DNA from: Escherichia phage IME08 | Length of the DNA: 64,000 nucleotides | Direction: 5' to 3' (one strand) | Sequence record: NC_014260.1 | Part shown: piece after piece, positions 4,883 to 53,553 of the stretch | How the letters are laid out: each line of letters begins with the position of its first letter | How positions within the stretch are numbered: the first letter of the stretch is position 1 | Position numbers and translations under genes: made by a program | Notes under the pieces: model-generated | Told to the model about the DNA's origin: nothing | The model's database searches: none | Seen by the model: the letters and a program-made list of their open reading frames with translations, nothing else

Positions 4883-4900
4883 TAAAAGGGCCGAAGCCCT
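4883..4900 (-). terminator. GGGC-UUCG-GCCC tetraloop hairpin plus U-run
   Basis: on minus strand reads GGGCttcgGCCCtttt; overlaps stop of the lipoprotein ORF. Confidence 0.5.
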
Positions 4901-5160
4901 TAATCAAATCGAATGGTCGACTTTTTAAAGAACAACCCAGAACAAACGGTTCCTTCAACCCTTTTACCTGTCGGACCCACAGCAATAAAGCCTGTACGTT
5001 GGAAATCATCTTCAGAGCAGCCAAATAGGTTGTATCCCGTGATTTGGATTTGTTCGTAGCCATTTGCATCCAATACACGGGTAGCATTATCAGCATCAGT
5101 ACAACCAACCAACGAAACGGCTAATACAAGAGCTGCAATAGAACGATTAATATATTTCAT
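4900..5160 (-). CDS. putative lipoprotein
   Basis: 86 aa; N-terminal signal peptide with lipobox LVGC. Confidence 0.6.
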   Translation of the reverse strand: MKYINRSIAALVLAVSLVGCTDADNATRVLDANGYEQIQITGYNLFGCSEDDFQRTGFIAVGPTGKRVEGTVCSGLFFKKSTIRFD

Positions 5161-5166
5161 AATTTC

Positions 5167-5343
5167 TCACTTAGTCAGCAGGTCGTAAAAACCGCCATTA
5201 ACATGTTTAGGAGCCGAGACTAACCGAACAGCCAGCCGATGGCAATCAGGACAAACATCATTATCTCTTTCAGAGATTTTCTTGATTTTTTCGTATTCTT
5301 TTGCACAGTCTTCAGATTGGCATTTGTAATCATAAAGTGGCAT
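5167..5343 (-). CDS. small zinc-ribbon protein (FmdB-like CxxC...CPxC)
   Basis: 58 aa ORF below the track cutoff, hand-translated: MPLYDYKCQSEDCAKEYE...CPDCHRL; AAGGA Shine-Dalgarno 5 nt upstream of ATG. Confidence 0.6.
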   Translation of the reverse strand: MPLYDYKCQSEDCAKEYEKIKKISERDNDVCPDCHRLAVRLVSAPKHVNGGFYDLLTK

Positions 5344-5344
5344 A

Positions 5345-5782
5345 TTATTCCTTAAAGTGCGCTTTCAGCATCTGGTAAACAGTCCAGGCTTCAGAATTAT
5401 TAGAGATAGTGATTTTAGTCAAAGGGAAATCACTCGGTTCAGATGGAGCTGCATCTTCAGATTGGTCTTCGTCTTCAGAGAAACCATCTTCAGCCCATTC
5501 GTCTTCACTGTCAACTACAACCATTTCTGTAAAGAATTTACGCTCGCTTGGATATAAAACCATATCAGTGTTATCACCATAGGCCAAGTCCACGTTCATT
5601 ACATAACCGGCCGCTAATCTAGCAGGGCAAAAACCTTCAGAATTGACAATAATATCTGCTATAGAAGAATTATCAAGACTCCTAATATTACTGGAATTCA
5701 GGTTACGGAATTCGGCTTCAGCCGCATCATCTTTAAAATAATACCATTTACCTTTTTCAAATTCAAGTTCTTGATTAAGCAT
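5345..5782 (-). CDS. hypothetical acidic protein
   Basis: start moved to internal ATG at 5782 with GGAAGGAGA SD, abutting the stop of the upstream gene (ATGCTTAA); strongly acidic stretch DSEDEWAEDGFSEDEDQSEDAAPSEPSD. Confidence 0.6.
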   Translation of the reverse strand: MLNQELEFEKGKWYYFKDDAAEAEFRNLNSSNIRSLDNSSIADIIVNSEGFCPARLAAGYVMNVDLAYGDNTDMVLYPSERKFFTEMVVVDSEDEWAEDGFSEDEDQSEDAAPSEPSDFPLTKITISNNSEAWTVYQMLKAHFKE

Positions 5783-5993
5783 TATAAGTCTCCTTCCAGA
5801 AGTCGGTGCCTTCAGCAGTGATTTCACGGAACACTGCATAGATAGGATTTTTATCGCCTTGGTTTTCGTATACATAAACCGACGATAAATGAGAAAACGT
5901 ATCAGAATGTTCCTTTTGAACCACGATTAAATCAGGGTTGAACAGAACATCTTCAAATTCTTCACGAGTCGAGTTCATAGTAACTTTAGCCAT
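5775..5993 (-). CDS. hypothetical protein
   Basis: 72 aa ORF with promoter-like element upstream. Confidence 0.5.
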   Translation of the reverse strand: MAKVTMNSTREEFEDVLFNPDLIVVQKEHSDTFSHLSSVYVYENQGDKNPIYAVFREITAEGTDFWKETYNA

Positions 5994-6015
5994 TTTATTT
6001 TCCTCTCATTTGTTG

Positions 6016-6053
6016 ATAGGGTAATAATATCACTACCCTACCATATTGTATAC
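6016..6053 (-). promoter_or_regulatory. sigma70-type early promoter (variant -35 GTATAC, -10 TATTAT) with conserved CTATCAAC block
   Basis: plus strand shows gttgatagg...ataata...gtatac 20-60 nt above the start of ORF 5775..5993. Confidence 0.45.
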
Positions 6054-6065
6054 TGTTTTTAAACT

Positions 6066-6632
6066 TTATGCAAAATGAATATCAGCATACTCAACGATAT
6101 AGCTCTCAGGGACAACCTTAAAGGTTCCAAGGAACACGATGTTATAGAGCTTAACGCCTTCTTCAACCCACTGGTCGGTGATGTAACCGGACATACTAGT
6201 GGTTTCATAAGTACCGAAAATTTCGTCATAGTATTCAAACGGCTTAGGGGAAACGAAAAAGACACCTTTACCCAATTCCCATTTAAAATCGACACCCACA
6301 TGAGACTGGTCAATAGTTTCAACGTCTTGAGCTACTACGCCACGGATATCATTGCTTTCACATACATACCCATCATGGGATTCAACTTCTTCAACTACAG
6401 GAGCGATGTACCCAGTGAATTCAGTTGATTCCAAGAATTTAGCACGCACATAAGCGAATTGGGTTTCAGTTTGACCATTTTTAGGAATGATGCGCACTTT
6501 TACTTCAGAATTTTCTTCACTGACACCTTCTTTAAGTTGGATGCTAACAACTTCAACTAAATGGCCTGCAGCTTTTGAACGAGACTTTTTGGATACACGA
6601 ACAATACCGCCGATATCGGAAATAGTAATCAT
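6066..6632 (-). CDS. hypothetical protein, paralog A
   Basis: 188 aa; C-terminal 32 aa (GYITDQWVEEGVKLYNIVFLGTFKVVPESYIV) closely matches the C-terminus of the adjacent 183-aa ORF. Confidence 0.6.
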   Translation of the reverse strand: MITISDIGGIVRVSKKSRSKAAGHLVEVVSIQLKEGVSEENSEVKVRIIPKNGQTETQFAYVRAKFLESTEFTGYIAPVVEEVESHDGYVCESNDIRGVVAQDVETIDQSHVGVDFKWELGKGVFFVSPKPFEYYDEIFGTYETTSMSGYITDQWVEEGVKLYNIVFLGTFKVVPESYIVEYADIHFA

Positions 6633-6674
6633 AATTTTTCTCTCTTGGTTAAAGGTTTATTCTCCATGAGAGCC

Positions 6675-6703
6675 ATTATAACATGGCTCTCGATAAAGTA
6701 AAC
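6675..6703 (-). promoter_or_regulatory. sigma70-type early promoter: -35 GTTTAC, 17-nt spacer, -10 TATAAT, embedded in a 9-bp inverted repeat
   Basis: minus strand reads GTTTACtttatcgagagccatgtTATAATggctctc; GAGAGCCAT / ATGGCTCTC are perfect inverted repeats (6668-6691). Confidence 0.6.
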
Positions 6704-7255
6704 TTAATTATAAATTTTAACCACCATAGAACGAGGTACTACACTAAAACTACCACAGTGAACAACGTTAAGAAGTTCAACACCATCTTCAACCCACTGG
6801 TCTGTTACCCAACCACATATAGGATTATCAAAAGGACGACGGATAGACACAGCAGCACACAGCAGGTCAGTAGGGTCTTGTTCGACTTCAACTTCTTGGA
6901 ACAGGATGAACTCTGCTTCATAAACCAAGATTTTCTCTATTTTGTTATTATCTAATCGACGGCCGTGGATGACGTAAGATTTGGCAAACCAGTCACTTTT
7001 GGTAAATTCTTCAACAATAAATTCGCCTTCGCCAAAAACCTCAGTCAGAGTTTTATGGCCGGAAATCAAGGCATTAGTTTTAATTTCAGGTTCAACCAGT
7101 TTGTAGGTTTTGCCGATTTTGATAGTCTGAGTAGTCATAGTAGGTTCCTTAATTTCCAGTGGTTTAACAGGGCATACATAAGTGCTTAAAACATCAAAAT
7201 CAATCAGTTTAGCTGCCGGATTCGGGGTATATTTAGGGTTATAATTAAATTTCAT
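6704..7255 (-). CDS. hypothetical protein, paralog B
   Basis: 183 aa; C-terminus GWVTDQWVEDGVELLNVVHCGSFSVVPRSMVV similar to paralog A. Confidence 0.6.
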   Translation of the reverse strand: MKFNYNPKYTPNPAAKLIDFDVLSTYVCPVKPLEIKEPTMTTQTIKIGKTYKLVEPEIKTNALISGHKTLTEVFGEGEFIVEEFTKSDWFAKSYVIHGRRLDNNKIEKILVYEAEFILFQEVEVEQDPTDLLCAAVSIRRPFDNPICGWVTDQWVEDGVELLNVVHCGSFSVVPRSMVVKIYN

Positions 7256-13794: not shown

Positions 13795-14129
13795 TAATCA
13801 CACGAGCTAGACGACGAGTCACAGCTTCCTGAGTCATAAGACGAATAAGAAGAATCACCAGTCCAAGAACTGACAGCAGCCGCAACCATAATAGGAGTGG
13901 TATCAATATGGCTTGTGCGACGAGCTTCTAAATGTTCTTTTAACTTTTTAGAATTCAAAGGAAGAGCGCCCGGGCCTACATTACCGGCTTTTTCAGGTTG
14001 ACGAATAACTTCTTCCATCATACCATCGCCTACATAAACATATTCCCTTAACTTAACGTATGATGGACTAATAGGAACCGGCCCTTCGCCAGGGGTAATC
14101 TTGAAAAAATTCTTAAGCCAACGAATCAT
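13794..14129 (-). CDS. hypothetical protein with Ser-rich C-terminus
   Basis: 111 aa; C-terminal DSSYSSYDSGSCDSSSSSCD. Confidence 0.45.
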   Translation of the reverse strand: MIRWLKNFFKITPGEGPVPISPSYVKLREYVYVGDGMMEEVIRQPEKAGNVGPGALPLNSKKLKEHLEARRTSHIDTTPIMVAAAVSSWTGDSSYSSYDSGSCDSSSSSCD

Positions 14130-14371
14130 AAGAAACCTCGTTTAAATTCAACCTTATCAATATCATCAGTCTCGTGACGGATTTCGGCATTAAATTCGAT
14201 AGAACCGTCTTCATGCATCATAAATGAATGGACAATAACTTCGGTATACCAAGGAGTATAAAAGTACTTTTTCAATACATGATTAGCGATAATTTCATCC
14301 AAAGTTTTATTTGGTTTAATCCAACGATTTAACATAGTGTTCTCCTCTATAAGATAATACCATCTTAACAC
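14126..14371 (-). CDS. hypothetical protein
   Basis: 81 aa ORF overlapping next start by 4 nt. Confidence 0.45.
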   Translation of the reverse strand: MLRWYYLIEENTMLNRWIKPNKTLDEIIANHVLKKYFYTPWYTEVIVHSFMMHEDGSIEFNAEIRHETDDIDKVEFKRGFL

Positions 14372-14400
14372 AACCTTCCTAAAAAGTAAACCCTTAAAAC

Positions 14401-14426
14401 CAAAAAAAGGAACCCGAAGGTTCCTT
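14401..14426 (-). terminator. GGAACC-UUCG-GGUUCC tetraloop hairpin + U7
   Basis: minus strand GGAACCttcgGGTTCCttttttt immediately after the soc stop. Confidence 0.7.
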
Positions 14427-14430
14427 ATAA

Positions 14431-14664
14431 TTAAACTACTGGGGTCGGCGTGAACATTGCTGCGTTCTTAGTTCGCCAATCGGCTGCATCAGTCACTACA
14501 GTAGTATAGGCTGCAACGGCCGAAGGGAAAGTCTGATAATGAGAGTCTGCAATACGGTGCTCGTTTGAATAAATCTCAAACGGGACCGAAACCTCAGTAC
14601 CTTTAACTTCTTTACCTTCACCAGCTGGATGTGTAAAGGTTTTGATATTAACGAAACCACCCAT
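14431..14664 (-). CDS. soc: small outer capsid protein
   Basis: 77 aa; VNIKTF...HYQTFPS...AAY match recalled T4 Soc. Confidence 0.9.
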   Translation of the reverse strand: MGGFVNIKTFTHPAGEGKEVKGTEVSVPFEIYSNEHRIADSHYQTFPSAVAAYTTVVTDAADWRTKNAAMFTPTPVV

Positions 14665-18524: not shown

Positions 18525-18566
18525 GTTGATAGGTCTATAGTATCACTACCATAGACCGTTGTAAAC
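18525..18566 (-). promoter_or_regulatory. sigma70-type early promoter with full conserved block
   Basis: gttgataggtctatagtatca...gtaaac above sp. Confidence 0.7.
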
Positions 18567-18948: not shown

Positions 18949-19143
18949 TTAGATTTCCTCAATACGGGCATCATGTTCATAAACTTCTACGTCGTCGACA
19001 TACGCCTTAACCAAAATACTATTGACTTCAGCGAATTGGGTGGTCACCCACCCAATATCGTTTTCACGCACTGAAGCTTCTTTGGTAGCGGTATCACCGT
19101 TGGCGAAATGGCCAACAAATTTTACTTTAATTGATTCGGACAT
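18949..19143 (-). CDS. dmd: Dmd-like antitoxin (discriminator of mRNA degradation)
   Basis: 64 aa; W.TTQ.AEVN..LVKA..DD pattern matches my recollection of T4 Dmd; recollection not verified. Confidence 0.55.
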   Translation of the reverse strand: MSESIKVKFVGHFANGDTATKEASVRENDIGWVTTQFAEVNSILVKAYVDDVEVYEHDARIEEI

Positions 19144-19473
19144 TTAGATTTCCTCACAGAAGGCCCATTCAGCATGGTAAACCGTGGCGCCTTTAGTATC
19201 ATTTAAACAAACCACATCTACCGGAGCAATTACACGATAAAGACGGGGTTCTCCTCCCACTGAACGAGCTGCACGTCCAGCATAAATCTTAGCCAAACCG
19301 ATATCTTCAGTAAAGAACACACGATTCAGGTTTTTCTTACGACCGGTTTCAGACAGAACTCCTGTTTCCTCAGGAGGGCAAAGCATATTACCGATATTAG
19401 CAACACTACAACTTCCGTGATAATACACTTTATATTCTGCTTTACAGTCGATGGTTTTCATTTTGTTCTCCAA
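19144..19473 (-). CDS. hypothetical protein
   Basis: 109 aa ORF with its own early promoter. Confidence 0.55.
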   Translation of the reverse strand: MENKMKTIDCKAEYKVYYHGSCSVANIGNMLCPPEETGVLSETGRKKNLNRVFFTEDIGLAKIYAGRAARSVGGEPRLYRVIAPVDVVCLNDTKGATVYHAEWAFCEEI

Positions 19474-19514
19474 GTTGATAGGTCTATAGTATCACGCCTA
19501 CAGGAGATGTAAAC
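19474..19514 (-). promoter_or_regulatory. sigma70-type early promoter with full conserved block
   Basis: gttgataggtctatagtatca + 17 nt + gtaaac. Confidence 0.7.
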
Positions 19515-19521: not shown

Positions 19522-19546
19522 AACAAAAAAGGAGCCGAAGCTCCTT
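19522..19546 (-). terminator. GGAGC-UUCG-GCUCC tetraloop hairpin + U-run
   Basis: minus strand GGAGCttcgGCTCCttttttgttttt right after the gene 41 stop. Confidence 0.65.
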
Positions 19547-23568: not shown

Positions 23569-24263
23569 TTCAGGAATCCTCGAACGTAGTCAAAATCGCG
23601 TTCAAATACGTGTGCACTAACCATAGTATGGGAATATGTACCCAGACCAACACCACACTGTTCGGCAATAAAGGCCATCAGTTTACCTTGCAGATAGAAA
23701 TCCAGCTGCATAACGATAGCACAGTTCTGTGAACGCATATGAGTGTGTGCATACAGACGTCCATCACGAATATAATATGTTACCGAATCGGTGCATGGAT
23801 ATTCTAGGGACTCGTCAGAATCAAGGAGTGCTTGGTCTTGTTCTTGGAGAATTTGGAATACTACACGTCGTGAGTTTTCTTTTTCTTTAAGCTCTTTAAG
23901 TAAAGCTGGAAGTTGTGCGACAATGCGAGGGCCATAAAAGGTATTGAAATTCGCAGGCAATACGTCACTTTTCGGCTTATCAATGAACTTAGCAACATTA
24001 GGGTATTCCTTAAATGCTTCGGCGGCATCAGTACCACCGGAAATCATAAACTTCCAGAAAGATTCGGCATAATCATAGTTGATACGATTAATACGAGGGT
24101 CTGTGAATTTATAGGTGCTTGCATCCAGTACTTCTACCGAAGCAGAACCAATTTCATAACAACGGCCGATACGAGAATCAACTGCAAACTGTGGAGCTTC
24201 CAGGATTTCTTCGTTCATTTGCTTAAACGCGTTTTCAAAACTAACAGCGGTAATGTGTTTCAT
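23565..24263 (-). CDS. 42: dCMP hydroxymethylase-like (thymidylate synthase fold)
   Basis: 232 aa; catalytic-Cys region PCTDSVTYYIRDGRLYAHTHMRSQNCAIVMQLDFY parallels T4 gp42 MCTNTVQYLIRDKK..NMRSNDVVFGF. Confidence 0.75.
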   Translation of the reverse strand: MKHITAVSFENAFKQMNEEILEAPQFAVDSRIGRCYEIGSASVEVLDASTYKFTDPRINRINYDYAESFWKFMISGGTDAAEAFKEYPNVAKFIDKPKSDVLPANFNTFYGPRIVAQLPALLKELKEKENSRRVVFQILQEQDQALLDSDESLEYPCTDSVTYYIRDGRLYAHTHMRSQNCAIVMQLDFYLQGKLMAFIAEQCGVGLGTYSHTMVSAHVFERDFDYVRGFLK

Positions 24264-27719: not shown

Positions 27720-30491
27720 TTAAAAGTCGAACATGTCAAATAATGTTGCTTTTTTCTCGTAGTCGATTTTAGCAGACTCGGTAAAACCAGTCAGAGGCTT
27801 GATAAAGGTCTTTTGGAACAGTACGTTGTAGTCCATCCAACGGAGGACTTGGTCACGAATCTGAACCGGAAGTTCAATACCTGACGGCCATGCCATACAG
27901 GCTTCACCAAACGGGTTGCCTTCTTTAAGTGGCAGTACGTATACCTTTTCACCATCAACGATACGAGGCATAGTCAAATCACCAGCAGAAGCACGCATGT
28001 AAGCTAAGCAACCTTTGATGTGGTACGGGCATTTAGAACCAGGGAATCCACCTTCATTATATTTCTCGATGTTGTTAGCACTGGATACTGCTGCAATGCT
28101 TACATAGTCCAGTTCGTTAAATTCCTTATTAAACTGTTTGAAATATTCTTGCAAAGATGCCTCGCCTTCCTGAAGCATACGACGGATACATTCTTTCAGA
28201 GCTTTCTGAACCGCTTTAGGTGTACTTGATTTCTGAGTTTCGAGACCCATGATTTTCAAGTGTGGTTCGGCATAACGAGTACCTTCCATGTCCCAAACGT
28301 TCAGTGCATAACGTTTCTTGCCTGTCCAGAATCCACCAAGACCTTTAGAACCAAGAGGAGGACCTGCGATAGCTTCTCGGTCCATGAACATCAAGTGCTG
28401 TTTGTTGTTCATGTACTCACACATCTCACGGAAGCCTGCATCAATAGCCGGTTCCATACGTTCACGTGCAAATTTATCTAAGAAGTCGACCCAGTGGTTA
28501 GTGTCACGGAATTTATCTTCGCCTACTTTATTGATGATTGCATCTGCCTTAACATAAATGGAGTCAGTATCACCATAGAGCACGAACTTCTGATTTTCAG
28601 TCTTACACACGCTATTCAGATATTCGTTAACCTTACGTTCAATCCATTGGAGGGCCATTTGACCAAACAGTGTGATTGCAGTTGCGTTCCTGAGGTCGTA
28701 GTAACGGAACCATACGTTACCAAGTGCACCATAAAGGGAGTTGATAAGCAACTTACGGTTAATCTGAGCAGTCATACCTGCAACTTCGGTACGTTCAGCT
28801 CTGAACAACATTTCTCTTAAAGAAGGTGCTGACAGTGTTTTAATCTTGGCTTTGATTTCGTCAGAGAAGTCAAAACGATAATCGATATCCAGTGGACTAT
28901 CAACTGACAGATTAGGATTTTCTAATGCTTCTTTAATTAACTCGCCATTACGTTGAGCTGCAAGCATATAACCTTTATGTTCTTTACGCTGTAAGAACAC
29001 CTTCGTGATTTCTGTAGGAATCACACCATCACGGTCTTTATAGTACATCATGCCGTTAGGAGAGCAACTGTAGACGTCGCTAGGACGCGGAGCTGTTCCG
29101 GCAATATATTCATGTATCGGTGCGTTAGCGAATGTGCCTGCGATGGTCTCTGGGCTTATATTCACTTGTCGAATGATACTCGGGTACAGAGATGTAAGGT
29201 CGAAACTCATTACATATTTGTAAGCGTTAGGAATCGGTTCCTTAACGAAAGCACCAGGATAAGGTTGGACCACGTGTGAACGAGCCTGTGGAATGACCCT
29301 GCCTTGTTCTTTAAGGCTATTAAAGATAATAGCATCCCAAGTCTTAATTGGACTGAACACCGACTGAATCTGCATCTTAGCATAATAACCCATGTCCAAA
29401 CTCAGAAGAATGAACTGGCGTTTCATATCAATCTGCACTACACGATATACGTCGATAATGTTATAGGAAATATATCGTTGGTGGTTCGTCTCACGCAACT
29501 TGGAGATTGGGCCATCATATTTCAACTTACCTACTTTCAATTCATATTCAGAAACATAATCCAGAGAATAAGAAGGCTGGTTGGTAAAGCTGAATTTTTT
29601 ATACAGGTCGATATAATCCAGAACAGAGATACCGAACAATGTAATAATTTCACGAGCACCGTACATGTTCTCGATAACTTTAACACGAGTCTTACGATGT
29701 GGGCTTAATCGCTTAGCAGTGTTCTCACCAAACAGATTTTTCAGACGGTTATAAACGTATGGTACGTCAAACGACTCAACGTTCCACCCAGTCAAAATCA
29801 CAGGAGTTTTCTGTTGCCAGAAATTCAAATACTCAAGCATCATTTCTTCTTCGGAATTAAACGGAAGATAAACGATTTTGTCAATGATTTCTTGTGGAAC
29901 TTCGTCACCACCTTCGTCTTGGAGTTTCTCAGCGATTTTAATCGACCACTCTTTGACTCTACCGTAAGGTGAAACTAAAAGGTCGAATACATAGAATTTA
30001 TCGTCAATCGAGTCGTAGTGGGTAATAGCATCGATAGGGTGTTTAGCCTGAGCTGGTTCAGGGAATCCATCAGGAGATGTTACCTCGATGTCGAAGTTAG
30101 CAATACGAATCTTAGAAGAATCATATTTGATTTCTTTACGATAGGTATCGGACAAATAGGCTAATTTGTAGTCGTCCATACCCAGGGCTTCGAGACCCAT
30201 ATCGTCCATACGTTTCATCCATTGGGATGCATCACGCATAGAGTCGAATTCTTTCTTAACACAACCCTTACCATAGATATCAATATATTTTACGGCTTGC
30301 TCTGGATTGGCATGCATAAACATTGTAGGCTTGTAAGGAACTTCACGACTACGTTCTTTACCATTTTTATCGATGTAACGTTCGAGAATATTATCACCGA
30401 TTTGTTCGACTGTCAAATAGAATTCTTGCATTTCATTTCCTTTATAGACGAGTGATTGTCTTTTGTTTGTTGATGAATCATTATACTCCAA
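27720..30491 (-). CDS. 43: DNA polymerase (family B) with 3'-5' exonuclease
   Basis: 923 aa; YGDTDS polymerase motif, FDIE exonuclease motif. Confidence 0.95.
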   Translation of the reverse strand: MEYNDSSTNKRQSLVYKGNEMQEFYLTVEQIGDNILERYIDKNGKERSREVPYKPTMFMHANPEQAVKYIDIYGKGCVKKEFDSMRDASQWMKRMDDMGLEALGMDDYKLAYLSDTYRKEIKYDSSKIRIANFDIEVTSPDGFPEPAQAKHPIDAITHYDSIDDKFYVFDLLVSPYGRVKEWSIKIAEKLQDEGGDEVPQEIIDKIVYLPFNSEEEMMLEYLNFWQQKTPVILTGWNVESFDVPYVYNRLKNLFGENTAKRLSPHRKTRVKVIENMYGAREIITLFGISVLDYIDLYKKFSFTNQPSYSLDYVSEYELKVGKLKYDGPISKLRETNHQRYISYNIIDVYRVVQIDMKRQFILLSLDMGYYAKMQIQSVFSPIKTWDAIIFNSLKEQGRVIPQARSHVVQPYPGAFVKEPIPNAYKYVMSFDLTSLYPSIIRQVNISPETIAGTFANAPIHEYIAGTAPRPSDVYSCSPNGMMYYKDRDGVIPTEITKVFLQRKEHKGYMLAAQRNGELIKEALENPNLSVDSPLDIDYRFDFSDEIKAKIKTLSAPSLREMLFRAERTEVAGMTAQINRKLLINSLYGALGNVWFRYYDLRNATAITLFGQMALQWIERKVNEYLNSVCKTENQKFVLYGDTDSIYVKADAIINKVGEDKFRDTNHWVDFLDKFARERMEPAIDAGFREMCEYMNNKQHLMFMDREAIAGPPLGSKGLGGFWTGKKRYALNVWDMEGTRYAEPHLKIMGLETQKSSTPKAVQKALKECIRRMLQEGEASLQEYFKQFNKEFNELDYVSIAAVSSANNIEKYNEGGFPGSKCPYHIKGCLAYMRASAGDLTMPRIVDGEKVYVLPLKEGNPFGEACMAWPSGIELPVQIRDQVLRWMDYNVLFQKTFIKPLTGFTESAKIDYEKKATLFDMFDF

Positions 30492-30512
30492 AAGGGACCG
30501 AAGTCCCTTTGC

Positions 30513-30728
30513 TTAAATTTCTATTGTAAAACGTTTAGTGGTTGGATTGCCATATTCGTCTTTAGTTCTAATCATAGCCTGGAAGACTTGCTGTCCTGGA
30601 TGTAATAACTTATGGAGGTCCTTTTGAAATTCTATTTGGAGCTCTTCGGAAAGGTCAAAAACAGTTTGAGTTGGGGAAAGTCCGTATACCTCTTTAAGAC
30701 GTTCACACGTTTCAATTTCAAGAATCAT
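30513..30728 (-). CDS. hypothetical small protein between regA and 43
   Basis: 71 aa from internal ATG immediately after the regA stop; longer track ORF overlaps regA out of frame. Confidence 0.4.
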   Translation of the reverse strand: MILEIETCERLKEVYGLSPTQTVFDLSEELQIEFQKDLHKLLHPGQQVFQAMIRTKDEYGNPTTKRFTIEI

Positions 30729-30729
30729 A

Positions 30730-31092
30730 TTAATTACCAATGGTGTACTTAGACAGTAGTTCCCAATCATTTTTCTGTTTAAAGGAAATGACACGGAAGT
30801 TATTGGTGATTTCGAACAGTTCAGATTCATCTACAATATCAATCAGTCCCCAATCCTTAAGAAGCTGAGCTATGGAATCACGACGCTGATAATCTTCACC
30901 GTCGATATCGACTTGTCGACCATCCATACGCAACATCTCTTTAAAGTGGACAATATAATATCGACCTTGCTTTTGCAAAATGTGACAGGATTGATATAGT
31001 TTCTTTTCTTTATTATTAGCGATACCCATACGAGTTAGGGTCTCTTTCACTTTTAGGAAGTCTTCAGGTTGTTTCAGAGTAATTTCAATCAT
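30730..31092 (-). CDS. regA: RegA translational repressor
   Basis: 120 aa; MIEITLKQPEDFLKVKETLTRMGIANNK... nearly identical to recalled T4 RegA. Confidence 0.95.
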   Translation of the reverse strand: MIEITLKQPEDFLKVKETLTRMGIANNKEKKLYQSCHILQKQGRYYIVHFKEMLRMDGRQVDIDGEDYQRRDSIAQLLKDWGLIDIVDESELFEITNNFRVISFKQKNDWELLSKYTIGN

Positions 31093-36215: not shown

Positions 36216-37234
36216 CGTGTAACCTCATTATAAAGTTGTGCAGCCATAGTCTTAAGGGCTTTAACATCGTCTTCAGTGTGGCCATCAGGAAGGGCGTCGA
36301 TATAATCATACATCATATCCAAGAGGGACTTAACTTCATCTTCCTCTTCAGAATCATCGATATCAACACTGTTATCTACCTTAGACACGATACGTAAAGA
36401 ATGGACGACCTTTTCAAGCTCTGATTCGAACTTAGTAAGGCCATCATCGATTTTATCGACTATAACACGAACTGCAATATTTGTAAAATCTTTGTAATCG
36501 ATAGTCGCGTTAGGATAATGAATCTTACGGTGCCAACAGGTTTCATTGATGACGAAATCCATTGTATGGGTTTCTGTATCGAAAATCCAGAAGCCGCGAG
36601 GGTCGTTTTCATCACCTGCAGTCAGGGTCCATGGCGTACCAATATACTTAACGTTTGCTGCATCAGAAATAGTGTGGAAGTGGCCTGACCAAACTTGCTT
36701 ATACCTCTTAAGGAAATCAGGTTCTAAACCATGAGATTTCATTCCTTTATAGAAATAGAAACCATTTAATTCCCAGTGACCTATACAGAAATCTGCTGTA
36801 GTATTTTTGATATGGTCCATGATATCAGTAGTGTTTTCTTCACACATCCATGGAATCAAATCAATTTCGGTACCATCAAAGTTAACCGTAGTAGGTTTCT
36901 CAATAACCTTGATATGGTCGTATTTACCCAGAACTTCAGAAGCAGCGTTCGGAGTCAAGGTATTTTTGTAGTGTGCATCATGGTTGCCGACGACAGTATA
37001 CATGGTAATGCCGTTGGTTTTAAGCAAATCTGAAATATGTCTAGCAAATTCCATACACTTATGAGTAATTGCTTTACGAACATCAAAAATATCACCATAC
37101 TGAATCCAGACAGTGATACCATTTGCTTTAGAATAATTGATGGCATCTTTGATGCCTGCCAATTGGATGTTTTGCACCCAAGGGTCGTCGTTCTTCACTC
37201 CAAGGTGCCAGTCACCCGTATTAAGAATTTTCAT
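36212..37234 (-). CDS. 47: recombination endonuclease subunit (Mre11/SbcD-like phosphoesterase)
   Basis: start set at MKILNTGDWHLG (phosphoesterase motif I); GNHD motif present. Confidence 0.9.
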   Translation of the reverse strand: MKILNTGDWHLGVKNDDPWVQNIQLAGIKDAINYSKANGITVWIQYGDIFDVRKAITHKCMEFARHISDLLKTNGITMYTVVGNHDAHYKNTLTPNAASEVLGKYDHIKVIEKPTTVNFDGTEIDLIPWMCEENTTDIMDHIKNTTADFCIGHWELNGFYFYKGMKSHGLEPDFLKRYKQVWSGHFHTISDAANVKYIGTPWTLTAGDENDPRGFWIFDTETHTMDFVINETCWHRKIHYPNATIDYKDFTNIAVRVIVDKIDDGLTKFESELEKVVHSLRIVSKVDNSVDIDDSEEEDEVKSLLDMMYDYIDALPDGHTEDDVKALKTMAAQLYNEVTR

Positions 37235-37838
37235 TACGTATTCGTTCCCACATTTTGGAGGCTGCTTTAGAAGCAGAGCCAGGAAGTTTACCTTTGACCC
37301 ACCCATCAGGAATATTAGATGGGTTAATCAGTTTATGTTCTATTCCGTTATTATACCACTTCCTGCCCTTATTATGACTAGATGCTTTATAATTAGGTGA
37401 ACGACCTTCTACATATCCTTCGGGGACTGTAGGTGCAAAGGTTTGTTCTAATGTAACAGGATTATAGGAATGAATATACCCTTTAGCATTATGAGAGCCG
37501 TAAAGAGGGTGTTGCTCTTTAGGTAGCGAAAGCCCAAAGAATCCTTTAGGAGCTGCGACAGCCCTATTAAAGAATAGAGGATTTTGGGCTGCATCGGTTC
37601 TTAACTGGTACATTCTTTCAGCTTCTAAAGCCTCTTCTCTTGTAGGGTGTTCACTTACAATACATGAGTCAAATAATTCTGGATGCTCTAAAAGCTCATT
37701 TTTATAGATTTCTTTATATGCTTTAGAAAGGACACTCCCGTGATATCCTTTTAAATGCTTCTCTAAAGTGGTAGACCCTATATAAAACGGTGGAAGCTTA
37801 GTCCCGGAATATATTGTCAGGTATGTGATGTATTTCAT
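37221..37838 (-). CDS. GIY-YIG homing endonuclease (Seg-like)
   Basis: 205 aa; N-terminal YLTIYSG...FYIGST GIY-YIG motif; C-terminal NUMOD-like GRKWYNNG. Confidence 0.7.
   Translation of the reverse strand: MKYITYLTIYSGTKLPPFYIGSTTLEKHLKGYHGSVLSKAYKEIYKNELLEHPELFDSCIVSEHPTREEALEAERMYQLRTDAAQNPLFFNRAVAAPKGFFGLSLPKEQHPLYGSHNAKGYIHSYNPVTLEQTFAPTVPEGYVEGRSPNYKASSHNKGRKWYNNGIEHKLINPSNIPDGWVKGKLPGSASKAASKMWERIRNENS
37221..37838 (-). mobile_element. seg-like homing endonuclease gene where T4 carries alpha-gt
   Basis: located between gene 47 and gene 55. Confidence 0.55.
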
Positions 37839-37865
37839 AGATTTATTTTATCATCCATTCAGAAA

Positions 37866-37890
37866 GCAAAAAAGGAGCCTAAGCTCCTTT
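37866..37890 (-). terminator. GGAGC-UUAG-GCUCC hairpin + U6
   Basis: minus strand GGAGCttagGCTCCttttttgc. Confidence 0.6.
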
Positions 37891-38110
37891 ACCAACTAAT
37901 ACACCATACAGAGGTTCGTGATTAGACCTGAACTTGATAGGCTTATATGTAATAGTACCTTCATTTTCTGCTTTAATACGAGCGGCTTCAAATTTAAGCA
38001 ACATCTCATTTTTGTCAGATTTAATCTTATCAAAATCCATCGAATTCGTCATTCATACAACCTCTTAAACTTTTTCGTATTCGTCTTTCATTAGCCACCT
38101 GTCCATGTTA

Positions 38111-40213: not shown

Positions 40214-40596
40214 TTAGCTGCCTTAACAATTTTCAGGTCGACGAATTTTTTCTTACGTTGGTTTTTCATACGACGGATAGTTTTATCCGTGATTTCACCA
40301 GGGCACCAAGCTTTGGATTCAACACCAAAGGCAGCGACATCGAATTCATCAAGGATATATTGGACCAGGATTTCACGAATACCATTCTTACCAATTTTCT
40401 GGTCTTTGGAGTGCATGATTGGTAACAGTTCGGCAACCCATTGGTCAAGAACCTGAGGAGTTACAAAACCTGTTTTCATCAGTTCGTTTACTTTATCGAA
40501 AGCGAAAGAGTTCAGTACGTTTTTAATTGCTTGTGACATAATAATTTCCTCAGTTTTAAAGTTATAATCCGTAGGACCATTATACTCTGGTCCCAA
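40210..40596 (-). CDS. hypothetical protein
   Basis: 128 aa ORF. Confidence 0.5.
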   Translation of the reverse strand: MGPEYNGPTDYNFKTEEIIMSQAIKNVLNSFAFDKVNELMKTGFVTPQVLDQWVAELLPIMHSKDQKIGKNGIREILVQYILDEFDVAAFGVESKAWCPGEITDKTIRRMKNQRKKKFVDLKIVKAAK

Positions 40597-40607
40597 GAGT
40601 TTGTAAA

Positions 40608-49158: not shown

Positions 49159-50139
49159 TTATTTCAGAAGTGTAACTTCAGCGATTTCGTTCCAGTCATT
49201 TTTATCGGTGGCAATGAAGTCCGCCAGATAAAGAGCTGTACGTAATGATACGTTACGAAGACGAGATACATTAGCCTTCATCCATGCTAAAGCTTGATAA
49301 GTCTCAGCATCAGTCAGACCTCGATTTTGCATCATATCAGTAGACAGGATAACGTCTTCAACACGAACCATAATCTCTTCGTTCGAGTGAACTCCGAGGT
49401 CTAAGTAAACTGAACGAGATACTAAAGCCTGGAGGTGCGGAGCAAGTTTAGTTCCACGCTCTAATTCACGGTCAATATCTACGTTGGTGATGAACACGAT
49501 GGTGCCTTCGTATTCGAATTCTTTATCGATGTTTTTATCATCGAGGTAAGAACTTGAAGTGCTCCAGCACACCTTACGTTTTTCACCAGTATCCAATGCT
49601 GCTTTTAACAGGTTCAGGATATCCATATCAGAGAATACATCAACATCATCGATAAGAAGAACACTATTAGGGCCGCGGTTATTCCAAAGCTGCTCGTAAA
49701 GACCGATTCCACTAATCTTTCCGTTGATTGATTTATATTCGATAGTTTCATTTTCGTGGGCATTTTGTAATGCTTTATCCAAAGAATACGTTTTACCAAT
49801 ACCTGCGGCACCAGAGATGATAAGGGAACGAATTTTACCATCGATGATTCCGTTGGTCATCATGTTCATTACTTTAAAACGTTTGTTGATGCGATGTTTC
49901 ATTTCTTCGGCGGATTCAGTAACCATTGCAGGAGCTTCAGCACCTTCCATTTCAACGTCACATTTGAACACCCATACACCACGTTCAACACCATCAATCT
50001 GTACGAATACCTTACCATCACCGAGATGAGCTTCGGATTCATGAATTTTATTAGGGAACCAGGTTTTACCTGAACTCATGAACGTACCAGAGATTTCATT
50101 ACCGCGATAGATACCTTTGTTGATTTTGATAGTTAACAT
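49159..50139 (-). CDS. P-loop NTPase (AAA-like)
   Basis: Walker A GAAGIGKT, Walker B LLIDDVD; start moved to ATG 50139 (GGAGA SD) because the track start lies above the promoter. Confidence 0.65.
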   Translation of the reverse strand: MLTIKINKGIYRGNEISGTFMSSGKTWFPNKIHESEAHLGDGKVFVQIDGVERGVWVFKCDVEMEGAEAPAMVTESAEEMKHRINKRFKVMNMMTNGIIDGKIRSLIISGAAGIGKTYSLDKALQNAHENETIEYKSINGKISGIGLYEQLWNNRGPNSVLLIDDVDVFSDMDILNLLKAALDTGEKRKVCWSTSSSYLDDKNIDKEFEYEGTIVFITNVDIDRELERGTKLAPHLQALVSRSVYLDLGVHSNEEIMVRVEDVILSTDMMQNRGLTDAETYQALAWMKANVSRLRNVSLRTALYLADFIATDKNDWNEIAEVTLLK

Positions 50140-50166
50140 TATATTCTCCGTTTCACTCAGTAGATT

Positions 50167-50205
50167 TGATAGGTCCATAATAACATGCTCTACGAGGGTG
50201 TAAAC
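50167..50205 (-). promoter_or_regulatory. sigma70-type early promoter (GTTTAC, 17 nt, TATTAT)
   Basis: tttgataggtccataata...gtaaac. Confidence 0.6.
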
Positions 50206-50221
50206 TCTTTTTTGCACTAAA

Positions 50222-50246
50222 CCCAAAAAAGGCCCGAAGGCCTTTT
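50222..50246 (-). terminator. GGCC-UUCG-GGCC tetraloop hairpin + U6
   Basis: minus strand GGCCttcgGGCCttttttgggttt after stop of ORF 50248..51258. Confidence 0.6.
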
Positions 50247-50247
50247 A

Positions 50248-51258
50248 TCATTTATAATACGAGTTATGGTTTTCTAGGTAAACCTCTTCAACGAACTTGT
50301 CCCAGAACTTCATGTCTACCTTCTCAGGCATACCATTCTTAGCGGCCCAGATAGCATTAGTTTCGACTTCATCAACGATGGCTTCAAGTTCAGCCTGTAC
50401 ATCTTTAAAAGCATGAAGCCCTTGTTTGATTTCAAGGATAAACGGTGCTGTACGTAAAGGATATTGGAGGTCGCCTGTTTGATAGATTTCCTTCAACTGA
50501 TATCCAGCACGATAAGCATGGCTCAGAGCTTTCCAGTCAATACCTTCGTTAGCTTCAGCTTTACGAGCACGTTCGCCATATTCCGAATCGAGCTTATTCA
50601 GAGATTGCTTGAGCTCGATTAATGACAGAGTGGTTTGGTATTTACGTCCGAGAACAGTATAGAACGTTTGAGGACCTGTTTTCTCATGGTTGTAGAATAC
50701 CCATTCACAGAACTCGTTTTCAGGGAGTCGATGTTTGATATCTTCTACCTTAGTGCGACGTTGCTTAGTAGAACCATCTTCTTGATAATCGACCCACTGT
50801 TCGGGAATCTGGTTAACAATAGCCAGTACACCACGCAGAGCAGCCAGTCGAGAACCTTTAACGCCATATTTAGAAGCTTGCTTACGGACATACCCTAAAT
50901 AGGCTTTCATGTTGGTTGTATAGAACCGTGAACGATTATCTTGGATAAATTTCCATACATCAGGTAAATCAGATTTAACCACCAGTTCAGCTGGAGTGTG
51001 GAGCATATCCAGAGCAACGGTTTCGCCATCAGCCGCTAGTTTAAAGAAATATTTCAGGCTGTAAAGCTCATGGTCAACATCATCTTTAGTGTTTTTGGAA
51101 GCAGTGTTATTCGTGTTCAGGTTGGTATGGTTCATAGCCGTACCTAACAGAATATCACGCGGATGTGGAACAAAGATTTCTTTAAAATCGACATCAGATT
51201 CCGGAGTACTTGTTCCATAAAGGTGGCTACCGAAGTAGCCTTTCATAACTGTTCTCAT
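50248..51258 (-). CDS. putative nucleotidyltransferase-fold protein
   Basis: 336 aa; N-terminal GSHLYGTSTPESDVD resembles the pol-beta-superfamily G[GS]x(9-13)DxD motif. Confidence 0.5.
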   Translation of the reverse strand: MRTVMKGYFGSHLYGTSTPESDVDFKEIFVPHPRDILLGTAMNHTNLNTNNTASKNTKDDVDHELYSLKYFFKLAADGETVALDMLHTPAELVVKSDLPDVWKFIQDNRSRFYTTNMKAYLGYVRKQASKYGVKGSRLAALRGVLAIVNQIPEQWVDYQEDGSTKQRRTKVEDIKHRLPENEFCEWVFYNHEKTGPQTFYTVLGRKYQTTLSLIELKQSLNKLDSEYGERARKAEANEGIDWKALSHAYRAGYQLKEIYQTGDLQYPLRTAPFILEIKQGLHAFKDVQAELEAIVDEVETNAIWAAKNGMPEKVDMKFWDKFVEEVYLENHNSYYK

Positions 51259-51707: not shown

Positions 51708-51717
51708 AATATTTTCC

Positions 51718-52278
51718 TTAAGAGTTCATAGTTGGGATAACAGAGTTCAGATAAGAGACTAAAGCTTTGAGCTCGTCCTTAGTAAATACCACTTCATTTT
51801 CACCGTCGTGTCTTTGGGTCAAGGATAGCAAATCACGGCCCTGATGTTGATACACGGATAATTCAGTATCGTAATCCATTTCTTCTTCATCACCTTCAAA
51901 GGTTTCACTAGAACGAATTACCGCATCTTGGCCAGGGACTTTCCATTCAACTTCCGGATGGCATTCTTCCTGGAACAGTTTAAAAATACATTTAAAGAAA
52001 TTAGCAGAATCACTAATGCTTAGACATTCCCCATCCGTTTCCAAATTAAACCCGTTGTCATGGTTATAAATCTGGGCCCACATATCATCGTTAATATTAA
52101 ATACACCTCTAAAACTACCATTAAGATATTGGTGTTTGTCCAAAACCTTTAAATCGTAAAGTGGTTTGATATCTTGGATAGTCAGTACGATTTTATCGTC
52201 TTCTTGTGAAAGCACAATTGCATTATCAACTACTTCAGCGGTCAGGTCACCAAACAACCCAGATGTTTCAATAATCAT
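51718..52278 (-). CDS. hypothetical protein
   Basis: 186 aa ORF. Confidence 0.55.
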   Translation of the reverse strand: MIIETSGLFGDLTAEVVDNAIVLSQEDDKIVLTIQDIKPLYDLKVLDKHQYLNGSFRGVFNINDDMWAQIYNHDNGFNLETDGECLSISDSANFFKCIFKLFQEECHPEVEWKVPGQDAVIRSSETFEGDEEEMDYDTELSVYQHQGRDLLSLTQRHDGENEVVFTKDELKALVSYLNSVIPTMNS

Positions 52279-52288
52279 TTCCCGTTCC

Positions 52289-52471
52289 TCATTTCACATT
52301 TTGTTTAATAAAATTTAACAACTCTTTAAGAGCTTCATCTTCTTCTTTAGAAAGCCTGCTGCATTCACTAGCTGGGTAATTACGACAAAACGCGGTTTCA
52401 AATCTGGTCACTGCTCCAGCATATGACTCGATAAGCTCTTCAAGTTTTAAATGCTTTTCTTCAGTTTTCAT
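52289..52471 (-). CDS. hypothetical protein
   Basis: 60 aa ORF. Confidence 0.35.
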   Translation of the reverse strand: MKTEEKHLKLEELIESYAGAVTRFETAFCRNYPASECSRLSKEEDEALKELLNFIKQNVK

Positions 52472-52474
52472 AAA

Positions 52475-52747
52475 TCACCGGTTGTGTTTTAAAATACTAT
52501 AAAGCTCTTCGACCTGGCTTGCGTTCAGACAAATCATATCATTTTCTTGTTGGAGCGTAATTCCACCTTTTTCTTCCCAATCTTTAACAAAGATGTCATC
52601 GTCAGACTCTTCAACATCGGCCAAAAGGACGATAATACCGTCTTCAGAATTACCACTCGGGTCATATAACATTACAGTTTCCTCGCTAACCATGAAAAGA
52701 ATAAACCAATTAAAATGGGCCCTACAGCCATTGTTAGCCAAGCCCAA
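52475..52747 (-). CDS. hypothetical protein
   Basis: 90 aa ORF. Confidence 0.4.
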   Translation of the reverse strand: MGLANNGCRAHFNWFILFMVSEETVMLYDPSGNSEDGIIVLLADVEESDDDIFVKDWEEKGGITLQQENDMICLNASQVEELYSILKHNR

Positions 52748-52791
52748 GGCTCAAGATAGTAAATCATCTCATGCTCCTATGCCATCAGCCA

Positions 52792-52974
52792 TTATGCTTT
52801 CAATTCTTCTAAATAATCAACCAAAGCCTGTTTTGATTTAGCCAAATCTCGTTTACACCGTTCTATTCCGGAATATGAATAACCTTCACACATCTCAACC
52901 GCAAGGTCGTTAGAATCTCTTTCAATTTCAATAGCCAATTTAAGAATTTTTGCACACTGTTCAGTAGTTAACAT
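52792..52974 (-). CDS. hypothetical protein
   Basis: 60 aa ORF. Confidence 0.35.
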   Translation of the reverse strand: MLTTEQCAKILKLAIEIERDSNDLAVEMCEGYSYSGIERCKRDLAKSKQALVDYLEELKA

Positions 52975-52978
52975 AATA

Positions 52979-53215
52979 TCACCAGTATTTGTTAATGGTA
53001 GAAATTAATTCTTGGGCCTGGGCTGTATTCAATTTACATCCACAACCCTTTAATGTGTCTTTAAGGAGCCACGGTTCCTTGAGCTCATCCTTTTCCAGAC
53101 GAATTCTGTATCCTCGATAATCGGCAAATATACTTCGGTCGTCGAATATCTTAATCTCAAGGATACGACCGTTGATTTCATATTCTAATGAAACCGTAGT
53201 ACTTGTAAGTTTCAT
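52979..53215 (-). CDS. hypothetical protein
   Basis: 78 aa ORF. Confidence 0.4.
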   Translation of the reverse strand: MKLTSTTVSLEYEINGRILEIKIFDDRSIFADYRGYRIRLEKDELKEPWLLKDTLKGCGCKLNTAQAQELISTINKYW

Positions 53216-53228
53216 ACTGTTTTCCTCA

Positions 53229-53459
53229 TTAAATTTTTTCGAATAATGCTAAAGCTTTTTCGATAGCTACAGATTTGGTACCAATAACCATTTTAGGCTG
53301 AGATTGGAACTTAGTAGCTTCGTAAACTTCTAAACCGGTTACTTTACCATTTTGTTCGATAATAGCAAAGGTGGCGTTTTCAAAATCTTCAGCTTTAACT
53401 TTAAGTGCTTTAGAAGCTTTAGCGATATCGATAACTTTCAGGTTGGTGATGGTTTTCAT
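53229..53459 (-). CDS. hypothetical protein
   Basis: 76 aa ORF with early promoter upstream. Confidence 0.45.
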   Translation of the reverse strand: MKTITNLKVIDIAKASKALKVKAEDFENATFAIIEQNGKVTGLEVYEATKFQSQPKMVIGTKSVAIEKALALFEKI

Positions 53460-53475
53460 TTTGTTCTCCTCATTA

Positions 53476-53516
53476 GTTGATAGGTCTATAGTATCATGTT
53501 CCTAGAGGATGTAAAC
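53476..53516 (-). promoter_or_regulatory. sigma70-type early promoter with full conserved block
   Basis: gttgataggtctatagtatca + 17 nt + gtaaac. Confidence 0.7.
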
Positions 53517-53522
53517 ACCTAA

Positions 53523-53553
53523 ACGAAAAAAGGTCCCACCGAAGTGAGACCTT
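53523..53553 (-). terminator. GGUCUCAC-UUCG-GUGGGACC tetraloop hairpin + U6
   Basis: minus strand GGTCTCACttcgGTGGGACCttttttcg after the rI.-1 stop. Confidence 0.6.

Follow-up and report, generated by a model that had tools for sequence, protein, structure and literature searches.

Intergenic hairpins in the window

The window, a stretch of 64,000 nucleotides, represents the first ~64 kb of a phage of the genus Dhakavirus that is related to T4 and resembles JS98. Nearly all genes in the window are carried on the minus strand. Six intergenic sites in this window read CTTCGG on the minus strand within a short stem, and in all six the closing pair of the UUCG loop is C-G (Table 1). Together with one hairpin carrying a UUAG loop and another carrying a GCAA loop, they have minus-strand stems of 6-11 bp with at least four G-C pairs, and they start about 0-4 nt after a stop codon, be it that of soc, gene 41, nrdC.11, rI.-1 or a small ORF. 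The two kinds of signal may even share bases. The first two stem bases at 19529 come from the gene 41 stop codon TAA, the hairpin at 4886 overlaps the stop codon of an 86-aa ORF (4900..5160) with gene 39 downstream, and at 37871 the stop codon TAG of a 57-aa ORF (37879..38052) falls inside the UUAG loop. The hairpin at 2800 directly abuts the stop codon of a small ORF downstream of gene 39, and that at 30491 has gene 43 on one side and, on the other, a small ORF (30513..30830) located downstream of regA. These hairpins are annotated nowhere in public records of the genome.

Table 1. Hairpins, associated ORFs and promoter-like elements in the window, with the orthologous hairpins of T4 (hairpin RNA is given as read from the minus strand; MFE in kcal/mol)
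Feature	Position	Strand	Structure and context	RNA (stem-loop-stem, tail)	MFE; z
UUCG hairpin before gene 39	4886..4901	-	6-bp stem, U4, then AUGCUUUA	AAGGGC-UUCG-GCCCUU, UUAUGCUUUA	-9.3; -1.6
UUCG hairpin after soc	14407..14426	-	8-bp stem, then U7; 4 nt past soc stop	AAGGAACC-UUCG-GGUUCCUU, UUUUUGGUUU	-11.4; -3.0
UUCG hairpin after gene 41	19529..19546	-	7-bp stem, then U6GU5	AAGGAGC-UUCG-GCUCCUU, UUUUGUUUUU	-10.5; -3.3
Sixth UUCG hairpin, before gene 43	30491..30510	-	8-bp stem	tail UUUUGGAG / UUUUGGAGUAUAAU	-11.5
UUCG hairpin after nrdC.11	50227..50246	-	8-bp stem, then U6GGGUUU; 1 nt past stop	AAAAGGCC-UUCG-GGCCUUUU, UUGGGUUUAG	-11.1
UUCG hairpin after rI.-1	53529..53554	-	11-bp stem with two G-U pairs, then U6CGUUU; 2 nt past rI.-1 stop	AAAGGUCUCAC-UUCG-GUGGGACCUUU, UUUCGUUUAG	-16.1; -4.8
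UUAG-loop terminator-like hairpin	37871..37890	-	8-bp stem, then U6		
GCAA (GNRA)-loop terminator-like hairpin	2800..2817	-	7-bp stem	tail UUUUCGGGGUUUAC	-13.0
soc ORF	14431..14664				
nrdC.11 ORF	50248..51258				
rI.-1 ORF	53557..53940				
MotA-box-like TGCTTTA, 12 nt, TAATAT	4858..4882	-	middle-promoter-like, gene 39		
Early-promoter-like GTTTAC-N18-TAAGAT	14362..14391	-	15 nt past soc hairpin; consensus match, putative function		
Early-promoter-like GTTTAC-N17-TACTAT	19486..19514	-	14 nt past gene 41 hairpin		
Early-promoter-like GTTTAC-N17-TATTAT	50177..50205	-	21 nt past nrdC.11 hairpin		
Early-promoter-like GTTTAC-N17-TACTAT	53488..53516	-	12 nt past rI.-1 hairpin		
T4 orthologous hairpins (T4 positions)	5392; 15316; 29963; 55426; 58808		39.1/39; soc; regA/43; nrdC.11; rI.-1, respectively		

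Five of the UUCG hairpins (4886, 14407, 19529, 50227 and 53529) had been listed in a first-pass annotation as C-G-closed loops, and all of them exist on the minus strand as C(UUCG)G hairpins after a stop codon, the plus strand reading A-run, stem, CGAA, stem at each. The positions assigned to them there miss the stem starts by a few bases and fall within the A-runs. The accompanying claim that a U-run follows each loop holds at four of these sites, since six or seven U stand directly 3' of the stem at 14407, 19529, 50227 and 53529 (as also at 37871), but at 4886 the tract has just four U, the same as at 30491 and 2800. The hairpin at 14407 looks like a canonical intrinsic terminator in its overall shape, and so do the other three with runs of 6-7 U. 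Stem and loop sizes at all eight hairpins fall in the range expected of intrinsic terminators (~5-14 bp and 3-8 nt, respectively).

Recovery by unbiased scans and chance expectation

Requiring six or more pairs, four or more of them G-C, and a T-rich tail, an unbiased scan returned from the intergenic minus strand the five UUCG hairpins listed before and the UUAG hairpin 37890..37871. This reproduces the earlier count of five UUCG loops among six terminator-like hairpins, in which the non-UUCG member was probably 37871..37890; the UUCG hairpin 30510..30491 had been overlooked. In 300 dinucleotide-preserving shuffles, C(UUCG)G terminator-like sites occurred at a mean of 0.087 with a maximum of 1, against 5 observed. 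CTTCGG is also strongly biased with respect to strand: stems of five or more pairs enclose 8 of its 12 occurrences on the transcribed strand and 1 of 30 on the other (Fisher p = 3e-5). The generic terminator scan as a whole revealed no enrichment, with 19, 8 and 18 sites found where ~13 per 20 kb would be expected; given that these totals do not exceed those of the shuffles, the loose terminator definition captures mostly noise, and the strict subset alone stands out. The window as a whole gave no Rfam match at the gathering threshold.

A few CUUCGG stems lie within genes. The one at 51215-51240 was rejected as a candidate because its codons specify Tyr-Phe-Gly in nrdC.11 and the stem is broken by synonymous variants in relatives. 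Two further stems, at 24142 and, as the sole case on the plus strand, at 59983, are intragenic and lack a U-tract.

Folding energy

The predicted hairpins (-9.3 to -16.1 kcal/mol) are both the MFE and the centroid structures of their sequences. Folding energy had been proposed as a check of these sites and proved to be non-discriminating. In a sliding 32-nt MFE scan of both strands the UUCG hairpins were not the most stable local structures, and since many coding and promoter-embedded hairpins match or beat them, stability alone fails to pick them out. Loop substitution was likewise rejected as a discriminator: with the same stems, ViennaRNA credits UUCG with a gain of just 0.4 kcal/mol over the median of all 256 tetraloops, at rank 62. 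The unusual stability of UUCG loops is an experimental result. With so small a nearest-neighbor gain, any claim of extra stability at these sites rests on published thermodynamics; nearest-neighbor energies miss why UUCG is preferred, and an energy threshold alone would not isolate such sites.

Conservation and covariation among related phages

At the same junctions in related phages UUCG hairpins are kept, with stems that differ but are fully compensated. An alignment of 37 distinct sequences has 99.6% of its cells paired, with changes on both sides in 6 of 7 pairs, and its covariation score is 1.006, whereas shuffles give 0.27 and slid registers no more than 0.39; none of 500 shuffles reached the observed value. 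The alignment was centered on CTTCGG, hence the invariance of the loop in it is by construction.

The individual junctions differ in how much they vary. A UUCG hairpin with covarying stems is present in 18/18 soc loci examined and a UUCG loop in 11/11 rI.-1 loci, T4 being included in both cases. UUCG is found at 16 related loci after gene 41, with five different stems, and five different stems also occur among relatives at the nrdC.11 junction. The position of the hairpin before gene 39 is kept in most relatives with loops of UUCG, UUAG, CUAGU, UACG or GCAA, and the hairpin before gene 43 has a UUCG, UACG or GAAA loop, with a conserved GGAGTATAAT invariably close on its 3' side. In relatives of the 37871 hairpin the loop is UUAG or CUAGU and the stop codon always remains within it. 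The U-run at the four U6-7 sites is retained in relatives despite their differing stems.

Taken together, the orientation with respect to transcription, the start at stop codons, the compensatory changes in relatives and the orthologous hairpins of T4 mark these hairpins as RNA-level elements under selection. The arrangement of T4, a UUCG terminator with a promoter after it, is kept with covarying stems even where the identity of the flanking proteins falls to ~70%.

Promoters downstream of the hairpins

A promoter element, either early or MotA-box-like, starts 3-22 nt past every hairpin. The distance from hairpin to GTTTAC-N17-TAnnnT is 12-21 nt at four sites, and GTTTAC begins at +7 after the GCAA hairpin at 2800. 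The MotA-box-like site of gene 39, judged by the consensus and spacing given in PMC2988021, begins 3 nt past the hairpin at 4886, and this arrangement is kept in relatives. A second role of the 30491 hairpin as the MotA box of a gene 43 middle promoter was considered and set aside: GCTTC/ACTTC in the loop resembles the GCTT core, but its spacing to TATAAT is 13 nt, versus 15 nt in T4.

The first-pass annotation had interpreted the hairpins after soc, gene 41 and rI.-1 as operon boundaries. These upstream gene labels are borne out (14407-14426, 19529-19546 and 53529-53554, respectively) and early promoters follow the hairpins; with a promoter element within 3-22 nt of each hairpin, the boundary reading fits.

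Proposed function and alternative explanations

We consider it very probable that the UUCG hairpins serve as Rho-independent terminators of early and middle transcription units of this T4-like phage. In the proposed mechanism, host RNA polymerase would read the minus strand and a short hairpin, rich in G+C and 6-11 bp long, would form in the nascent RNA, nucleated and capped by the C(UUCG)G tetraloop. The U-run would then leave a weak rU:dA hybrid, causing the polymerase to pause and release the transcript, and the hairpin at the 3' end of the freed mRNA would be expected to slow 3' exonucleases. Beyond the hairpin a new promoter, early (GTTTAC-N17-TAnnnT) or of the middle type with a MotA box, would start the next unit, so that hairpin and promoter jointly insulate adjacent transcription units. 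Termination, its efficiency and any stabilizing effect are what we infer from sequence. The sites at 14407, 19529, 50227 and 53529, with their U6-7 tracts, are confidently predicted to be terminators, and those at 4886 and 30491, with U4, are probably weak or partial terminators or may be mainly RNA-stability elements. The U-tracts of the T4 orthologs of the latter two are poorer still, which makes a hairpin without termination plausible at 4886 and 30491.

These short or interrupted U-tracts, here and in T4, also favor an explanation in which the hairpins act mainly as mRNA 3'-end or processing barriers, shielding upstream messages from 3' exonucleases or marking sites of processing, while most polymerases read through. 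PMC8948821 names transcript stabilization among the varied functions reported for T4 CUUCGG hairpins, and delayed-early expression in T4 needs transcription running on from upstream units (PMC2988021). A pure stability element would have no need for the U6-7 placed right after the stem at four sites, however, and this U-run is kept in relatives even with different stems; we regard this explanation as unlikely; stability and termination are moreover not mutually exclusive roles. A literature search for T4 Term-seq data or transcript 3'-end maps found nothing relevant. It is far less credible still that the hairpins are chance palindromes or by-products of coding sequence. The intragenic stem of nrdC.11 is such a by-product, but the six intergenic hairpins occur at ~60-fold above the shuffle expectation and are conserved with covariation outside coding sequence, where this explanation is refuted; we give it practically no weight.

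Another explanation places selection at the DNA level, with the hairpin-promoter units acting as recombination cassettes like the PeSL elements of RB49 and phi1, the shuffling of small genes as the primary selected role and termination as a by-product. PeSL elements, which combine an early promoter with a stem-loop, occur in T4-type phages, and PeSL-like elements have been described in JS98 (PMC2839356). Circumstantial observations agree with this. Gene content varies next to the hairpins: IME341 has an extra promoter-plus-ORFan cassette after the nrdC.11 terminator, and phages differ in whether a homing-endonuclease-like gene follows the 37871 hairpin. In one relative (L080) a deletion junction falls within the hairpin, and the stem GGAACC/GGUUCC found here after soc is found after nrdC.11 in another relative (L074). 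Nevertheless, the loop on the transcribed strand always reads UUCG rather than CGAA, a strand preference that a DNA palindrome would not need. The U-tract is confined to the 3' side, just ~5 of the ~17 early promoters in the window bear such a hairpin, and stems of five base pairs may converge by chance. We find this explanation highly improbable. A further reading, that the UUCG hairpin and promoter units are mobile regulatory cassettes of Dhakavirus in addition to terminating transcription, is speculative and in our view unlikely. If true, recombination at near-identical junctions (U-tract, GTTTAC...TACTATAGACCTATCAAC) would add or remove small genes and gene conversion would swap stems between loci, which would account both for non-homologous sites sharing a stem and for the indel breakpoints seen at hairpins.

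Returning to termination, the hairpins are mainly of use for annotation, as they would mark the limits of transcription units in the Dhakavirus genome. The observation is confirmed as real but ordinary, in that the class is already known from T4 and no new mechanism is involved.

Comparison with known systems

CUUCGG hairpins are abundant in intergenic regions of T4 (Tuerk et al., 1988, PNAS 85:1364, as cited in PMC8948821 and PMC2811024), and the likeness to them suggested by the first-pass annotation is borne out by CUUCGG hairpins at 5 of 6 orthologous T4 junctions. Both sets share the C(UUCG)G loop, short G+C-rich stems, an intergenic position and the transcribed strand, whereas the stem sequences here differ from those of T4 by compensated changes. 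Gene 41 is followed by the hairpin here and in several relatives (gp41 69-100% identical) but not in T4; T4 and T4-type relatives have no UUCG hairpin there, and an early promoter takes its place at the stop codon. The a-gt.2-like junction has a UUAG loop here, against UUCG in T4.

The intrinsic terminators of E. coli likewise consist of a G+C-rich hairpin that passes immediately into a U-tract and lies downstream of a stop codon, and the same host RNA polymerase would read both kinds of site. Compared with these, the stems described here are short, with 4-5 G-C pairs extended by A-U pairs between the flanking A-run and U-run. UNCG or another stable tetraloop forms the loop in nearly all cases, and a promoter follows within ~20 nt.

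In a reporter assay, transcription was terminated by stem-loops located beside early promoters in T4-type phages (PMC2839356). The PeSL of RB49 and phi1 (Arbiol et al., 2010, PMC2839356) also join an intergenic terminating stem-loop to a strong sigma70-like early promoter and adjoin variable small genes, and the units described here unite a stem-loop with a sigma70-like early promoter in a conserved intergenic segment of ~100 bp. PeSL-like stems inside promoters also occur in the window, at other promoters. The PeSL stem-loop usually lies in or overlaps the promoter (from -35 to -10 or across -10) and is often of the form GGGG...CCCC, whereas the UUCG hairpin here precedes the -35 element and has a U-tract on its 3' side.

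Genomic setting and anatomy of the hairpins

By megablast the window belongs to the genus Dhakavirus (JS98-like T4 relatives); the regions compared are 93-96% identical to phages AnYang, C6, QL01 and IME341. Its gene order (rIIA, 39, dda, modA, soc, 61, 41, uvsX, 43, regA, 45, 46/47, nrdC, tk, regB) is colinear with the start of these genomes and of T4. Given that the minus strand carries 120 of the 128 ORFs in a greedy ORF map of the window, transcription proceeds towards lower coordinates, and it is the reverse complement of the printed sequence that corresponds to the RNA.

At the five positions where the first-pass annotation had reported C(UUCG)G hairpins followed by U-runs, the order on the plus strand is A-run, stem, CGAA and stem, which gives stem, UUCG, stem and U-run in the minus-strand RNA. 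The loops and the C-G closing pair held at 5/5 sites, with the U-run reduced to U4 at hairpin 4886 (hairpins are named by their lower stem coordinate). When both strands were scanned under strict criteria (a minimum of 6 pairs, 4 or more of them G-C, and a T-rich tail), the intergenic hits on the transcribed strand were exactly these five hairpins and one with a UUAG loop, which reproduces the earlier count of five in six. The upstream genes had been correctly labeled as soc, 41 and rI.-1, and the first A-U stem pairs often come from the stop codon.

Hairpins and promoter elements in the window, with flanking genes in the direction of transcription
Feature	Position	Strand	Description	Upstream	Downstream
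GCAA-loop hairpin	2800-2817	-	terminator-like; shorter U-tract		
UUCG hairpin	4886-4901	-	6 bp stem; U4	86-aa ORF (stop codon)	gene 39
UUCG hairpin	14407-14426	-	8 bp stem; U6-7	soc (stop codon)	small unnamed ORF 14126..14371
UUCG hairpin	19529-19546	-	7 bp stem; U6-7	gene 41 helicase (stop codon)	small unnamed ORF 19144..19461
UUCG hairpin	30491-30510	-	sixth, absent from first-pass annotation; terminator-like; shorter U-tract (U4)	small ORF downstream of regA	gene 43
UUAG-loop hairpin	37871-37890	-	passed strict scan		
UUCG hairpin	50227-50246	-	8 bp stem; U6-7	nrdC.11 (stop codon)	nrdC.10
UUCG hairpin	53529-53554	-	11 bp stem; U6-7	rI.-1 (stop codon); rI just upstream of rI.-1	small unnamed ORF 53229..53459
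Early-promoter-like site	2764-2792	-	after 2800		
Early-promoter-like site	14362-14391	-	after 14407		
Early-promoter-like site	19486-19514	-	after 19529		
Early-promoter-like site	50177-50205	-	after 50227		
Early-promoter-like site	53488-53516	-	after 53529		
MotA-box-like site	4858-4882	-	after 4886		
MotA-box-like site	37845-37868	-	after 37871		
Early-promoter site, PeSL-like	18532-18557	-			
Early-promoter site, PeSL-like	62978-63005	-			
Early-promoter site, PeSL-like	6014-6043	-			
Early-promoter site, PeSL-like	6668-6691	-			
Early-promoter site, PeSL-like	40568-40598	-			

Chance, strand specificity and conservation

The hairpins are non-random: the mean number of UUCG hairpins per window (5 or more pairs, U-rich tail) was 0.087 across 300 dinucleotide-preserving shuffles (maximum 1), versus 5 in the window itself. 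They are also strand-specific. The whole window has 30 plus-strand and 12 minus-strand copies of the hexamer CTTCGG (about 10 expected per strand), and these lie inside stems of at least 5 pairs in 8/12 minus-strand versus 1/30 plus-strand cases (Fisher p = 3e-5), which argues for an RNA-level element rather than a DNA palindrome. In the coding sense the plus-strand excess is one of CCGAAG, for which a codon effect probably accounts. An intragenic CUUCGG stem at 51215-51240 was rejected as a coding coincidence, given that it encodes Tyr-Phe-Gly of nrdC.11 and that synonymous variants in relatives destroy it. The most stable local hairpin of the window, a GGGUGG...CCACCC palindrome on both strands (19032-19060, -18.2 kcal/mol), lies within a dmd-like ORF.

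Loci for relatives of gp41, Soc, rI.-1, NrdC.11, gp39 and gp43 were taken from viral contigs, together with the first 70 kb of T4. A UUCG hairpin is found at the soc junction in 18/18 loci (stems including GGAACC, GGAAUCC, GGACUCC and GGGAACC), after rI.-1 in 11/11, after gene 41 in sixteen loci with five different stems, and after nrdC.11 in 11/34, most of the remaining nrdC.11 loci having no hairpin at the stop codon and further sequence or a promoter directly next. At the gene 41 junction, T4-type phages have an early promoter at the stop codon instead; CUUCGG hairpins occur in T4 at 5/6 orthologous junctions (5392, 15316, 29963, 55426 and 58808). In a loop-centred alignment of 37 distinct hairpins, where loop invariance but not stem pairing follows from construction, 99.6% of cells are paired, both-sided changes affect 6/7 pairs, and the covariation score is 1.006 versus 0.27 in shuffles and at most 0.39 in slid register. 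Upstream of genes 39 and 43 the hairpin stays in place, but the loop is sometimes UACG, UUAG, CUAGU, GCAA or GAAA; what selection favours is therefore a stable hairpin with a cap, UUCG being the preferred one.

The UUAG loop of hairpin 37871 contains the stop codon TAG of a 57-aa ORF, and the loops of relatives, UUAG or CUAGU, likewise include a stop codon. The same GGAGC/GCUCC stem carries a UUCG loop in T4, where it lies after a-gt.2.

Promoters next to the hairpins

Every terminator-like hairpin is followed 3-22 nt downstream by a promoter element. Early promoters of the form GTTTAC-N17/18-TAnnnT follow 2800, 14407, 19529, 50227 and 53529, while 4886 and 37871 are followed by a MotA-box-like TGCTTTA or TGCTTTC that precedes a -10 hexamer by 11-12 nt, in agreement with the published middle-promoter consensus and spacing (PMC2988021). 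At these last two sites the U-tract passes into the MotA box at its A/T-rich beginning, a layout kept in relatives. Only about 5 of the window's roughly 17 intergenic early promoters have such a hairpin, so that some but not all unit boundaries are marked in this way. These promoters fit GTTTAC-N16-18-TAnnnT, about half extending into ...TGATACTATAGACCTATCAAC, and several carry 9-13 bp inverted repeats across the spacer, -10 and start site, resembling the promoter-early stem-loop (PeSL) cassettes of phages RB49/phi1.

Hairpin 30491 includes an ACTTC that precedes a conserved GGAGTATAAT by 13 nt (in T4, GCTTC by 15 nt), and might overlap a MotA-box-like element of a gene 43 middle promoter; two related loci (L155, L156) have a separate ACTTTA box between hairpin and -10. 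A small hairpin, AGAC-AAUCACUC-GUCU (30446-30461, minus strand), immediately precedes the Shine-Dalgarno sequence of gene 43. Its ACUCG motif is also present in relatives, and it resembles the translational operator of T4 gp43, which has the 8-nt loop AAUAACUC.

Probable termination and comparison with known systems

Ordinary intrinsic termination by host RNA polymerase is the best explanation, and the earlier reading of the five UUCG hairpins as intrinsic terminators is supported. The tetraloop would nucleate a short RNA hairpin, the 3' U-tract would destabilise the RNA-DNA hybrid, and the hairpin would stay on the released mRNA as a 3' cap. The anatomy of the hairpins, their non-randomness and strand specificity, their covariation and their orthology are demonstrated by the analysis; from sequence we infer both termination and mRNA stabilisation, confidently reading the four U6-7 sites as terminators. 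At the U4 sites 4886 and 30491 termination may be leaky, or the hairpins may serve mainly for stability. In local RNA all five originally reported hairpins are both the minimum-energy and the centroid structure (-9.3 to -16.1 kcal/mol). The extra stability claimed for UUCG was not discriminated by folding energy, as ViennaRNA puts UUCG only 0.4 kcal/mol ahead of the median tetraloop on these stems, so that the label "extra-stable" rests on published thermodynamics.

T4-type phages are well known for this feature, which is present here at largely orthologous positions; Tuerk et al. (1988; cited in PMC8948821 and PMC2811024) described an abundance of CUUCGG hairpins between T4 genes. The PeSLs of RB49/phi1 are units of stem-loop and early promoter that terminate transcription and flank variable genes, and PeSL-like sequences have been noted in JS98 (PMC2839356). 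Some circumstantial signs fit PeSL-type shuffling at the hairpins. Between its nrdC.11 terminator and the promoter of nrdC.10, IME341 (locus L002, 6100-6800) has an extra early promoter plus ORFan that the window lacks at 50130-50256. In one relative, L080, the junction of a deletion falls within the UUCG hairpin. A variable homing-endonuclease-like gene (phrog_10820; 37221-37838, minus strand) directly follows hairpin 37871 and its middle promoter; most of the close relatives examined (e.g., L110, L111) lack it here, and among them only L108 and L109 have it. Unlike typical PeSLs, the hairpins in the window sit upstream of the -35 element and have a U-tract.
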